Source: Candidatus Heimdallarchaeota archaeon (GTDB lineage Archaea; Asgardarchaeota; Heimdallarchaeia; Heimdallarchaeales; Heimdallarchaeaceae). From it: a stretch of DNA of 40,826 nt. Positions 2,153 through 5,724 of this stretch are shown here, one piece after another. The position numbers and the translations under genes are program-made. The notes beneath the pieces are model-generated. The model was not told the DNA's origin. It saw nothing but the letters and a program-made list of their open reading frames with translations, and made no database searches. The DNA is taken from contig JABCTC010000032.1 in NCBI GenBank assembly GCA_018238545.1, positions 1-40,826 of the forward strand. The letters run 5' to 3'. Numbering within the stretch: the stretch's first letter is position 1; each line of letters opens with the position of its first letter.

Positions 2153-3562
2153 TTGTCAGAGCCATTAAATCTGTTAGGAGAATTACAGTGGATTGGAACA
2201 ATACTTATTGTAATAATCGTGCTAATCACAATTGTTTTACTAACAAAAGAGGGAATTGATTCTACAAAAGTCACAGCTTCTGGTGCCTTAGCAGTTTCAT
2301 TATTGTATCTAGTACTTATGGATTGGGAGAAAGGTTTTGTCGAAAACTTAGGATTTGAAGAAGTACCTGAGCATTTTCTGGAAGCTTTGGCACAAACAGT
2401 GAACATAGAAGCTATACTAATTATCTTCTCTATAGGAATAATTGTTGCGATTACAAAAGGGGCAGGGTTCTTTGACTTTGTATCACTATATATTGTTAAA
2501 ATGACTAAAGGTGATCCAAAAAAACTACTCGTAGCATTAGGTGGATTAACATTCTTTGTTTCAATGTTTTTTGATAATCTAAGTGCAATAATTCTATTAG
2601 GATCATTAACAGTAGTTACATGTAAACAGCTAGAACTTAACCCAGAACCTTATGTGTTGTTCGTAGGTATAAATACCATAATTGGTGGTCTGCCAACCCC
2701 TGTTTCATCGATACCTAATATTATCTTTTTTAACTTGTATCCAGAGACAAACATGAACTTCATAACATTTACAGCTTATATGTTTCCTATTGCAATTCTT
2801 TTCTTTGGGCTTGCTACAGTATTTTTCTTCCTTATGTATAAGAAGCAACTAAGAATCAAAGTTACAGATGAGAAAAGAGAGCAGATGGGAAGAATTAATC
2901 CTTGGTCAGGGATTTCTGATAGAAAGAACATCTGGAAATCAACAATTCTGCTTGGATTTCTTTTTGTAGGATTTTTACTTACAAGTATTAAGAGTAATCC
3001 TCTAGATGTAGCTATTACAGCTCTAATAACAGTGTTTTTCGGTCTTTTTCTTTTCAAAACAGATTTGAAGCGTTATCTTAGAGAAGGAGTCGAATGGGAG
3101 ATGATTATTTTCGCTATTGCTCTTTTCGTTCTAATGGGACTTTTAACAGCTGCAGGAGCTTTGCTACCATTAACTGATATACTTACAGGGATATTAGGTA
3201 CAAACCCCACAACAGGAGGGTTAATTTTAGTCGCAACAATAATCGGTGCTGTAGGATTATTTATAGCAGGATTTTTGAATAGTTTTTCAGCTGCACTTAT
3301 TTTCTCTTATATCTATCAAGCTTTAGAATTAGGGGTGGCAACAGGAGTAGGTTTGTGGATTGGTTTTGTTCTTTCTGGGAATATTGGTGGAGCATTGACA
3401 CCTCTTGGATCAATTACTATTCTAATGTCACTAGAGATATTAAGAAGGGAAGGATATCCTATTTCTTTTCTCAAATACGTAAAGAAGATGTTACCTTTAA
3501 CATTAGTTTGTGGAGTGGTGGGTGTGCTCTATTCAATCGCTCTAATAGCTTTGGGTTTTTAG
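2153..3562 (+). CDS. ArsB/NhaD (SLC13/IT superfamily) permease
   Basis: ~12 TM segments; SMFFDN, IGGLPTPVSSIPNII and GNIGGALTPLGS signature hairpins; VEWEMIIF motif. Confidence 0.88.
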   Translation: MSEPLNLLGELQWIGTILIVIIVLITIVLLTKEGIDSTKVTASGALAVSLLYLVLMDWEKGFVENLGFEEVPEHFLEALAQTVNIEAILIIFSIGIIVAITKGAGFFDFVSLYIVKMTKGDPKKLLVALGGLTFFVSMFFDNLSAIILLGSLTVVTCKQLELNPEPYVLFVGINTIIGGLPTPVSSIPNIIFFNLYPETNMNFITFTAYMFPIAILFFGLATVFFFLMYKKQLRIKVTDEKREQMGRINPWSGISDRKNIWKSTILLGFLFVGFLLTSIKSNPLDVAITALITVFFGLFLFKTDLKRYLREGVEWEMIIFAIALFVLMGLLTAAGALLPLTDILTGILGTNPTTGGLILVATIIGAVGLFIAGFLNSFSAALIFSYIYQALELGVATGVGLWIGFVLSGNIGGALTPLGSITILMSLEILRREGYPISFLKYVKKMLPLTLVCGVVGVLYSIALIALGF

Positions 3563-3713
3563 TAATCTAGGTGGTTCAAAAGAGAAAGAAATCAAACATA
3601 TATTAGCAACTAAGGAGAAAAATAACTTCCAATAAATTACTGGATTAACACCATTTGATTGCAAAAATAGTTTAGTTTCGTTTTCAATCATAATATAAAC
3701 TAATATTGGTTTT

Positions 3714-4559
3714 TTATGCAGAATCTTTAGTAGTGCAAATTTCTAATATACTTGGTGGTTCTTCATCCGTCTTTGTTACTGTTAACCAATTTGTTATTGC
3801 TACTAGTTCTTCAAGAAATTGTTTAACTCCTTTTTCGTATCCTGAGCAGAGTCTTACTAACTGCGTTTCAGTTTCTAGAAATATTCCCCACCGTTGGTAT
3901 TTTTTAGATAAGTTTTTTACATCATATTTCATAATTGCTAATTGATATTCTGGTGAAAGAGGAAATGTATAACTGAATCTATCTCTTTTCGCTGTACGAC
4001 CGTAAATTAATATTTCCTTCTTATTCTGATCGATTATTATATTTGTATATGTTGTTAAGAGAATATATAAAAACCAAATGATAAAAACAGAAGGCCAGAC
4101 TATTACTGGTAAGATAGTTGGCAACCCATATTTTATAGAAGGAATCAATTGATCGGAAATAGATAAGGAAGGAATCCAAACAAAAATGATTAGTAAAACA
4201 TAAGCTATTGTTGTAGTAATTGTTCCAATAATAGCTACTAACCAATTCATGCCCATAATAAACCGTCTTTCTCGTTTTCTTGGTTTTATTAGAAACGCTA
4301 TCGCACTTGATGTAAAACTAATCCATCCTCCTGCAATAATAATCATTAGAAAACTGATGAGATTAAAGATATCGTACCAATACACTCTATATCTTGAAGT
4401 AATTATTAATCCCCATAACAGAAAAATAGATGCAAAAATAAACAGAATAAATGATATCAGTACTAAACTCTTAAATGACTTTTTCCGAGAGAAATTCCAA
4501 ATTTGTAAATCTTCTTCATCTTGAGAAAAAAACTTTGGAGATGAATTAATTCCTTTCAT
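3714..4559 (-). CDS. Integral membrane protein (4 TM plus soluble C-terminal beta domain); candidate immunity protein
   Basis: Four hydrophobic segments then a polar ~105-aa tail; GGAG upstream; starts 51 bp after the 4611 stop on the same strand. Confidence 0.7.
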   Translation of the reverse strand: MKGINSSPKFFSQDEEDLQIWNFSRKKSFKSLVLISFILFIFASIFLLWGLIITSRYRVYWYDIFNLISFLMIIIAGGWISFTSSAIAFLIKPRKRERRFIMGMNWLVAIIGTITTTIAYVLLIIFVWIPSLSISDQLIPSIKYGLPTILPVIVWPSVFIIWFLYILLTTYTNIIIDQNKKEILIYGRTAKRDRFSYTFPLSPEYQLAIMKYDVKNLSKKYQRWGIFLETETQLVRLCSGYEKGVKQFLEELVAITNWLTVTKTDEEPPSILEICTTKDSA

Positions 4560-4610
4560 TTCAAATCCATCTCCATATTCAATATTTTAATGTTTTTGGA
4601 TGGTTTAATT

Positions 4611-5724
4611 TTATCCTCCAAACATCCAAGCTGGCATATTGCATATATCGTCAACATCGGTGATGTCCGAAATAGAGCCTATTACCCACCATACAACTGT
4701 TAGAACAATTGAAATAATTTGCAACACTTTAAGGGCTAGAGCAGTTCCAGCTGTTGCTGCTACGGCAGCGGCTTGAGCAGTCACATCTGCAATTGCTGCA
4801 GCTGCTAAGTACCAAGCTATTTTTGGGATCAGTTTAGTGCAGATAAAATTCACTATAGCTGGTAAAAATGCCAGGAATGCGCTACCTATCATTGCAACAC
4901 TGCTCATATGATTAAATAATACAGCAAAGAAATTAGCACAAGCACTAAAGAAACTTAAACCTGCTGCGCTGATTACTTCTGCGACCTTAGCCACTATCCA
5001 AATCGATGAAAAGGTAAGTAAAGCTCCTATTACAACCATAGCAAGATTGCCGCAGTTCCATACGGTTTCTACAATTCCCCAACCACCTGATGGGCCAAAA
5101 GGATTACGTACAATGTAGGTAACTGTAGGTGTTGGTGGTGTTGGTGGTGGGGCCGCTCCTCCTCCATCATCTATCAGCACTACAAGTTCTTCTTTCTGAA
5201 CTGTTCCTGATACGATATTAATTGCTCTTACAAGCAGTTTGTCGATAATCGTCTGAGATTTCGTTATTATATATGATGTAAACAATCCTCCAATTACTGC
5301 ATCGATTGATCCTTCAAATGTAAACACATCTGTTTCTTCTAGAACTGTTTGTTTCAATAGATTCTTCGAATCACAAGACAATACTACATCCTTAGCAGGA
5401 GTTTTTTCAATATTTGAAGCGAAATCGACCCAAGACATCTGGAAATTCTCTGTTTCAATACCTTGATCATTACCATGACCTATCCATATTACAGGGCCAA
5501 AACAATGACTAATTTTTAAGGAAAATTCCAATGAATTATATTCCAAGATAGAAGGATTTGGTACATCTTCTCTAATTGCTAAATATGCTTTTATCTATAG
5601 CATTATTATCTCCCATCTTTACGATGGTAACTCCCATAACAGGCGACGTTATCGCTGTTATTACACTCATACTCATTACAAGAACAATGAGCAGAGAAAT
5701 TCTATATTTGTTTCTAATTTGCAT
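4611..5724 (-). CDS. Secreted precursor: signal peptide, clan CD-like protease domain, Pro linker, hydrophobic helical domain (one frameshift near 5582)
   Basis: GAGGT RBS and ATG at 5724 give MQIRNKYRISLLIVLVMSMSVITAITSPVMG..., stopping at 5572. Removing one T of the TTT at 5581-5583 joins it to AIREDVPNPSILEYNSLEF (ORF 4611-5546), giving ~370 aa. Motifs IWIGHG and VVLSCDS. Confidence 0.75.

Follow-up and report, generated by a model that had tools for sequence, protein, structure and literature searches.

We analysed a stretch of 40,826 nucleotides from a Candidatus Heimdallarchaeota archaeon (GenBank assembly GCA_018238545.1, contig JABCTC010000032.1, positions 1 to 40,826), here called the window, and describe a locus of two genes on its minus strand between positions 3,714 and 5,724. 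The first gene is split by a frameshift and encodes a signal peptide, a predicted alpha/beta domain with a conserved His and Cys (N-domain) and a hydrophobic C-terminal part (C-domain). The second gene encodes a membrane protein. The locus is a frameshifted copy of a two-gene cassette, which belongs to an undescribed family that is widespread in Asgard archaea. The features of the locus are as follows.

5572..5724, minus strand: 5' gene fragment, a 50-amino-acid (aa) open reading frame (ORF) with the start codon, the signal peptide, the first beta-strand and the start of helix 1
5581..5583, minus strand: TTT run with one surplus T compared with intact orthologues, the site of the gene split
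4611..5594, minus strand: remaining open frame of 327 codons, including the stop codon at 4613-4611
5546-4611, minus strand: 311-aa ORF, as called from TTG at 5546
5184..5634, minus strand: predicted clan-CD-like alpha/beta domain, residues ~31-180 of the intact protein, spanning the frameshift (AlphaFold2 model, VIA-align, invariant columns)
5079..5183, minus strand: Asp-Gly3-Ala2-Pro/Thr linker and a short segment ahead of the membrane helices, modelled with low confidence and a feature of a subfamily
4659..5075, minus strand: hydrophobic C-domain with five predicted helices, a variable module (hydropathy, model, paralogue comparison)
4614..4667, minus strand: acidic tail S-D-I-T-D-V-D-D-I-C-N-M-P-A-W-M-F-G-G, the window-type variant of a D-x-x-D-x-D/N tail
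3714..4559, minus strand: co-oriented gene of a 281-aa membrane protein, candidate cognate partner or immunity protein, 51 bp downstream of the stop codon of the first gene

The 50-aa ORF begins with MQIRNKYR, whose three basic residues are followed by a hydrophobic core of 17 residues, and GAGGT is located 7 nt upstream of its start. After the hydrophobic core of the signal peptide, S/T-P-V is conserved. The ORF corresponds to residues 1-48 of the intact orthologues and ends at a TAG stop codon produced by the frameshift. In a word-indexed search of 5.8 billion proteins we found three intact orthologues of 364-370 aa with 99%, 86% and 81% identity, the closest of which, P0012, has 370 aa. All three (P0012, P0013 and P0014) have AIDKSILAIRED across the junction, and the window yields exactly AIDKSILAIRED only after one T is dropped from the TTT at 5581-5583. 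Furthermore, P0004, a 355-aa paralogue encoded on contig C26 of this genome, is intact and carries signal peptide and domain in a single frame. The 50-aa and 311-aa ORFs are one gene with a one-base insertion and a product of ~370 aa, just as the original prediction had joined the signal-peptide ORF with its ribosome-binding site to the 311-aa ORF by a one-base deletion at this site. Programmed frameshifting or a conserved recoding event is ruled out, since the orthologues and the paralogue are in frame. The orthologues do not have the shift, which is therefore either a strain-specific mutation or an error of assembly. In the former case the window copy is broken. Due to the frameshift, automatic annotation gives a signal-less 311-aa 'hypothetical protein'.

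Searching 1.84 billion cluster representatives with an N-domain profile (HMMER) yielded 463 proteins at E<=1e-3, of which 254 also passed E<=1e-10, so that the family comprises at least 463 cluster representatives, which is a lower bound. Nearly all matches are 320-400 aa long with the domain at residues ~30-185, and in most members the domain follows an N-terminal hydrophobic signal and precedes 3-5 hydrophobic helices. In whole-genome searches, 36 of the 82 genomes of the class carried the family. For the whole phylum the figures were 123 of 399 Asgard genomes and 44 of 85 genera, and a single genome had as many as 9-12 matches. Many of the matches carry in-frame stops and decay is common. 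The named records are metagenome-assembled genomes of Candidatus Heimdallarchaeota, in agreement with the Asgard host assumed in the original prediction. One full-length member lies on a contig of 2105 bases labelled Candidatus Pacearchaeota (L084, JAFCGI010000050.1), which is probably a binning error and not an occurrence in DPANN. We did not find a description of the family in the literature, a check that is incomplete with regard to the main survey of archaeal toxins.

The N-terminal domain

The His codon of PVIWIGHG is located at 5477-5475 and the Cys codon of VVLSCDS at 5375-5373, with a separation of 34 residues, and the 311-aa ORF also contains VFTFEGSID. These elements, as well as the linker and the four Cys in the hydrophobic part of the window protein, are each present as the original prediction had described them. 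Across the family five residues are strictly or nearly invariant: the His, the Gly at H+5, the Cys, the Ser at C+2 and an Asp (codon 5303-5301). Among 118 diverse members, His83 and Cys117 are 100% conserved, Gly84 is 93% conserved, and Gly84, Gly88, Ser119 and Asp141 each reach at least 93%. The conservation of the His-Gly...Cys dyad was repeated in 22 N-domains taken from whole genomes.

Residues 30-175 were modelled by AlphaFold2 from the 118-sequence alignment at a pLDDT (predicted local distance difference test) of 96-98. The predicted topology starts with a strand (33-36), a helix, a strand (58-61), a helix and a strand (78-81) followed by G-H-G, and continues with a beta hairpin, a helix and a strand (112-115) followed by S-C, a helix, a short strand and two helices. 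In the model, the His thus comes directly after the third strand and the Cys directly after the fourth. An earlier model built from 9 sequences has the identical topology.

We compared the model exhaustively against 48,161 PDB representatives with VIA-align. The top match for two independent models is the CHAT protease SAVED-CHAT (8tl0_A, Z 10.2, 140-142 aligned residues), which is also the sole match that spans the whole domain contiguously. It is followed by LacI half-domains at Z 8.5-8.7, with 103-116 residues split over the chain, and further down by legumain (Z 7.8-8.0) and the AEP ligase OaAEP1 (7.5). The leading Foldseek rows include CHAT, the MARTX cysteine protease domain (CPD; 3gcd, 3eeb), legumain, PIGK and caspase-7, with E-values of only 0.002 to ~0.05, and flavodoxin-like folds are interspersed among them. 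The caspase-like clan CD fold proposed earlier for the N-domain, and the prediction that clan CD folds would come up in a structure search, are both supported by these comparisons.

On the sequence level, Peptidase_C25, a clan CD family, is the sole Pfam family matched by more than one member. These matches are below threshold and cover the stretch from His to Cys; the best one has an E-value of 0.0017 and 18 bits compared with a cut-off of 23. Aligning profiles of the N-domain and of ten Asgard CHAT domains with hhalign paired His with His and Cys with Cys, at a statistically weak probability of 4-12% and E-values of 0.002-0.009. True CHAT genes of the same class are readily detected, and no member among the 118 and 22 matched the Pfam CHAT family (PF12770) at the gathering score. 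For this reason we do not file the domain as CHAT but only as CHAT-like in fold. Neither of the two genes of the locus gave anything significant in Pfam, NCBIfam, PDB (single sequence and profile), PADLOC or PHROGs.

An alternative is that the N-domain is not a peptidase but another Cys/His enzyme or a binding domain on a flavodoxin- or Rossmann-like scaffold, with a convergent likeness to clan CD. LacI/PBP halves, PurE and DJ-1 at Z 7.2-8.7 are not far under CHAT, the Foldseek E-values are weak, and no Pfam match exceeds its threshold, all of which would fit this explanation. On the other hand, the order of His and Cys is that of clan CD, their modelled positions after the third and fourth strands are the same as in clan CD, and the 34-residue spacing, the Gly after the His and the small residue at C+2 match clan CD and the Asgard CHAT alignment. 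Moreover, CHAT alone covers the whole domain contiguously and the only recurrent Pfam match belongs to clan CD. We therefore regard a non-peptidase as quite unlikely. From the predicted structure and the sequence comparisons we conclude that the N-domain is a divergent, minimal clan-CD-like domain outside any curated family, and it is probably an active cysteine peptidase.

Variable C-domains and their partner genes

While the N-domains are conserved, the C-domains differ strongly between paralogues. In the window's genome, the N-domains of the two paralogues are 50% identical and the C-domains are unalignable. Paralogues in the genera g13 and g8 have N-domains with 62-77% identity, and their C-domains are found only at BLAST E>0.1. 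The break in similarity is located directly after an F-x-G-x-(I/V)-D-A motif. This is the conserved N-domain with a variable C-domain that the original prediction expected; an invariant membrane anchor, named there as the contrary outcome, is not seen. Similarity among the paralogues of g13 and g8 also includes the signal peptide and the sequence preceding the start codon. In the g13 paralogues L052, L058, L059, L062, L023 and L025 the conservation reaches ~10-50 codon-equivalents upstream of the start. Conservation upstream of start codons indicates that the duplicated unit includes the 5' region.

The predicted C-domain helices of the intact window protein comprise residues 217-238, 243-269, 275-301, 304-323 and 327-355. 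In most members of the family, the C-domain has 3-5 segments at Kyte-Doolittle >=1.6. There was no match to the C-domain in Pfam, NCBIfam, PADLOC or PHROGs and no toxin domain was recognisable. An ESM Atlas search with the C-domain gave scores <=0.83, which is the noise level, and a colicin cluster at rank 19 was discounted as evidence.

The linker between the two domains of the window protein is LIDDGGGAAPPPTPPTPT, which reads D-D-G-G-G-A-A-P-P-P-T-P-P-T-P-T. An Asp-preceded Gly/Pro linker is seen in only about a quarter of the members, and a site of the type hydrophobic/Asp-or-Glu/small/Gly after the N-domain in only 29 of 118. The D|G cleavage site suggested in the original prediction is therefore not supported as a family-wide site and represents a trait of a subfamily.

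An acidic D-x-x-D-x-D/N tail after the last helix is present in 53 of the 118 members, so the C-domains are not wholly unrelated. In the long members P0090, P0104 and P0136, a Gly run after the acidic tail is followed by a Hint-like domain that starts with G|C-V-x-x-x-T (PT-HINT E 0.008 and Hom_end_hint E 0.005, both sub-threshold). This is a second domain of autoprocessing type within the N-domain family. Because it stands right after the tail in some members, processing at the conserved acidic C-tail is conceivable. The same three proteins also have immunoglobulin (Ig) domains of the Big_7 family, and another protein, P0141, has PKD domains.

The original prediction placed a gene for a membrane protein with four transmembrane (TM) segments 51 bp downstream of the first gene. 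The position and orientation of this gene hold. The number of segments is not clearly four: the 281-aa protein has 4-5 TM segments and a ~100-aa soluble tail, and a crude hydropathy scan gives 5 hydrophobic segments. Such neighbours are common in the family. Complete family genes with a neighbour in the retrieved DNA number 34, and 23 of these are followed at a distance of at most 130 bp by a co-oriented gene with two or more TM segments. The same test applied to the window's genome, with the same crude gene calls, was positive for 11.5% of all long genes and 19% of membrane genes. The partner genes represent many unrelated families (25 clusters for 40 loci), and their type follows the type of the C-domain. 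A shared neighbour type was found in 45 of 90 pairs of loci with similar C-domains compared with 7 of 690 other pairs, counts that come from related genomes and therefore inflate the statistic. The downstream gene is thus linked to the C-domain and co-varies with it, which is what the original prediction had asked for.

C-domains with an 'IVG-tail' are accompanied by a 280-aa 6-TM family in four genera. Membership of the window's downstream protein in this 280-aa family was excluded with an hmmsearch score of -12.5, and it forms its own family. Its orthologues adjoin window-type genes in two congeners (G010 and G022), and a profile of the protein detects distant homologues beside window-type C-domains in G044 and G045 (E 2e-7 and 5e-7), two genomes from a different family of the same order.

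Several further loci carry homologues or other partners. At locus L020 (G010:C107:195830-199282, positions 1570-2893) only the last 142-180 codons of a window-type gene are left, directly after an unrelated 495-aa gene, and the 281-aa partner gene downstream of it is intact and 91% identical. Of this effector only a remnant is left, and its partner has been kept. At L037 (G076:C3:14177-18007, positions 1495-2355) a homologue with 38% identity to the protein encoded downstream in the window stands without an adjoining family gene; it comes from a different family of the class than the window. In the genus g14 (L024, L027, L028 and L029), the family gene ends in ..Y-Y-x-A-W-F-x-x-L-M-x-F and pairs with a conserved 310-415-aa membrane protein, which, in the gene calls used, is encoded on the opposite strand and faces the 3' end of the family gene.

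Tandem same-strand units are found at L051 (G071:C30:1-4067), in the order family gene, 290-aa 6-TM gene, family gene, 300-aa 6-TM gene. Another example of an array is a 20-kb cluster (L050, G044:C4:893000-912900), in which a single family gene of full length is accompanied by four copies that are truncated at the 5' end. These four share the start point ..K-S-S-x-x-Q-R-H-F-F-L-S-C-D-S, just before the Cys strand, and therefore lack the signal peptide and the His; downstream of each lies a different small TM gene. A fifth fragment at L050 has the window-type tail, and a 282-aa P0002-like gene comes after it. At L002 (G000:C26:30729-34610) the cassette of the intact paralogue in the window's own genome lies between two copies of one small gene, one start-less and one intact (433-624 and 3509-3748). 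No such repeats were seen in the flanks of the window locus, only short AT-rich chance matches.

These observations also bear on a second explanation, in which the first gene encodes a membrane-anchored extracytoplasmic protease and the second an accessory membrane subunit. The C-domain would be an anchor or regulator, the neighbour a partner or substrate, and the variability would stem from relaxed TM constraint or from a cell-surface arms race with viruses instead of toxicity. Stable insertion is to be expected of a protein with a signal peptide and 3-5 hydrophobic helices, the overall size and layout stay constant, the C-terminal acidic motif is common to many members, and one partner family (~280 aa, 6 TM) is kept in four genera like a fixed subunit. 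A mere anchor would hardly combine closely similar N-domains with unalignable C-domains in the same genome and with a sharp break. Furthermore, conflict systems account better for the tandem arrays, the frequent pseudogenes and the 5'-truncated cassettes with small TM genes of their own, and the partners belong to many unrelated families. We consider an anchored protease with an accessory subunit unlikely.

Interpretation and comparison with known systems

In the reading we favour, gene 1 encodes a Sec-type signal peptide, an extracytoplasmic Cys/His domain of ~150 aa with a caspase/CHAT fold and a hydrophobic helical C-module that is exchanged as a cassette between paralogues, and gene 2 encodes a multi-TM protein whose type matches the type of the C-module. 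We infer that the N-domain is an active peptidase cutting its own chain, that the C-module harms membranes and that the product of gene 2 protects against it. The cassette would then consist of a polymorphic effector that acts on membranes and a cognate membrane protein that protects from it or acts as its partner, and would by analogy be an archaeal counterpart of bacterial polymorphic toxin–immunity systems. We put this forward tentatively, with a confidence that falls slightly short of even. It is favoured because the variable C-domain, the cognate neighbour, the cassettes and the caspase-like peptidase upstream match the definition of polymorphic toxins. Of the features that define such toxins, we found a conserved N-part with a divergent C-part, a co-varying downstream gene and truncated C-cassettes with downstream genes of their own. 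Neither a recognisable toxin domain nor a trafficking or secretion domain was detected in the C-domain scans.

Several points weigh against an effector. The structural scores of the N-domain are moderate, with generic Rossmann-like folds close behind CHAT, and no significant match to a curated peptidase, toxin or immunity family was found in Pfam, NCBIfam, PDB sequences, PADLOC or PHROGs. The window's own copy is broken by the frameshift, 11 of the 34 complete genes are without a co-oriented neighbour, and the relatedness of the genomes means that the co-variation counts overstate independence. The acidic tail in 53 of 118 members and the constant size suggest a common structural role of the C-domains and not a set of unrelated toxins. 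Delivery is the weakest point. A Sec-type signal peptide is all that was seen, with no delivery apparatus or trafficking domain, and because the C-domain is strongly hydrophobic (about five helices in the window protein), the module is expected to insert into the producer's own membrane. The release of a payload after cleavage, as put forward in the original prediction, is therefore doubtful.

The variable membrane modules and their partners could also be identity determinants of a self/non-self (kin) recognition pair, with the protease serving processing or signalling. An analogue is provided by IdsD and IdsE of Proteus, which are membrane identity determinants in cell-cell contact. The specificity apparently resides in membrane helices, cognate partners co-vary, there are many alleles per genome and no toxin fold is recognisable, all of which would fit such a pair. 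However, the common 350-aa form has no adhesion or contact domains, and Ig or PKD domains occur only in rare long members. Ids and Tra proteins are compared here by analogy alone, and no search aimed at homology to them was made. We regard kin recognition as improbable.

A more far-reaching version of the effector reading is that Asgard archaea possess a polymorphic effector-immunity class of their own. It would combine a Sec-exported, self-processing clan-CD protease, representing a new clan CD family, with interchangeable membrane modules, each neutralised by a multi-TM protein, and would act in conflict or kin discrimination without a dedicated secretion machine. We see this as possible and lean against it. 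If true, the family would be a new clan CD peptidase family in a minimal form of 150 residues, a tractable two-gene system for archaeal intercellular antagonism or identity, and an example of modular membrane-domain exchange. Asgard archaea are the closest prokaryotic relatives of eukaryotes, and little is known about competition or recognition among them. The family is large, with at least 463 sequence clusters, about a third of the sampled Asgard genomes and up to a dozen copies per genome, and it is absent from the curated libraries searched.

In bacterial polymorphic toxin systems, caspase-like releasing peptidases (Tox-Caspase) sit just upstream of the C-terminal toxins, and classical systems of this type are reported to be scarce in archaea (Zhang et al. 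2012, PMC3482391). The Asgard family resembles them in the clan-CD-like domain immediately upstream of a variable C-module, the conserved N-parts and swapped C-parts in paralogues, the cognate downstream gene, the truncated cassettes, the arrays and the quick decay. It differs from them in that the peptidase is the only conserved domain, with no RHS or filamentous repeats, and in that a Sec signal peptide takes the place of the trafficking domains of type V, VI or VII secretion systems (T5SS, T6SS, T7SS). Furthermore, the Asgard variable modules are all multi-helix and hydrophobic with no known toxin fold, and the partners, which are multi-TM proteins, bear no relation to known Imm families.

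The CHAT proteases (PF12770; SAVED-CHAT 8tl0, Craspase) provide the best structural match and share the order and context of His-Gly and Cys, and the dyads are paired in the profile alignment. The Asgard domain has ~150 residues compared with 289 Pfam positions, about half, and lacks a Pfam CHAT match. It is predicted to be extracytoplasmic and fused to a membrane part, whereas the solved CHAT proteases are found in SAVED or TPR/gRAMP contexts, judging by structure titles. The C80 CPD of MARTX and large clostridial toxins (3gcd, 3eeb) is likewise a small clan CD domain of ~200 aa and appears in the leading Foldseek rows. Its role is to cut its own polypeptide and to free neighbouring domains. 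It has no sequence match to the Asgard domain, and the CPD toxins are soluble multi-domain proteins. The CPD is activated by inositol hexakisphosphate (InsP6); outside an archaeal cell, such activation is implausible.

CdiA-CT/CdiI of E. coli EC93, Tse4/Tsi4 and TspA/TsaI are membrane-depolarising toxins with membrane immunity proteins and dedicated delivery machines. The hydrophobic helical C-terminal effector and the small multi-TM immunity gene directly downstream are comparable to the Asgard cassette. None of these systems is known to have an N-terminal clan CD domain behind a signal peptide, and no homology to them was detected.

An archaeal precedent is the halocin C8 precursor ProC8, which is exported and whose cleavage yields a hydrophobic antimicrobial part from the C-terminus; it uses the twin-arginine translocation (Tat) pathway, its N-part is the immunity protein, its product has 76 aa and the cleaving protease is unknown (bioRxiv 10.64898/2026.07.27.741052). 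The Asgard family shares with ProC8 the archaeal exported precursor with a hydrophobic C-terminal part. ProC8 differs from it in the Tat route, in the immunity role of the N-part and in the small size of the product. NCBIfam, the expected source of the TIGR04449 halocin model, gave no match at all.

Taken together, the logic of a peptidase, a variable effector and a cognate neighbour is already known from these systems, whereas the domain family, the modules that are all membrane modules, the Asgard host and the layout without any other trafficking part are new.

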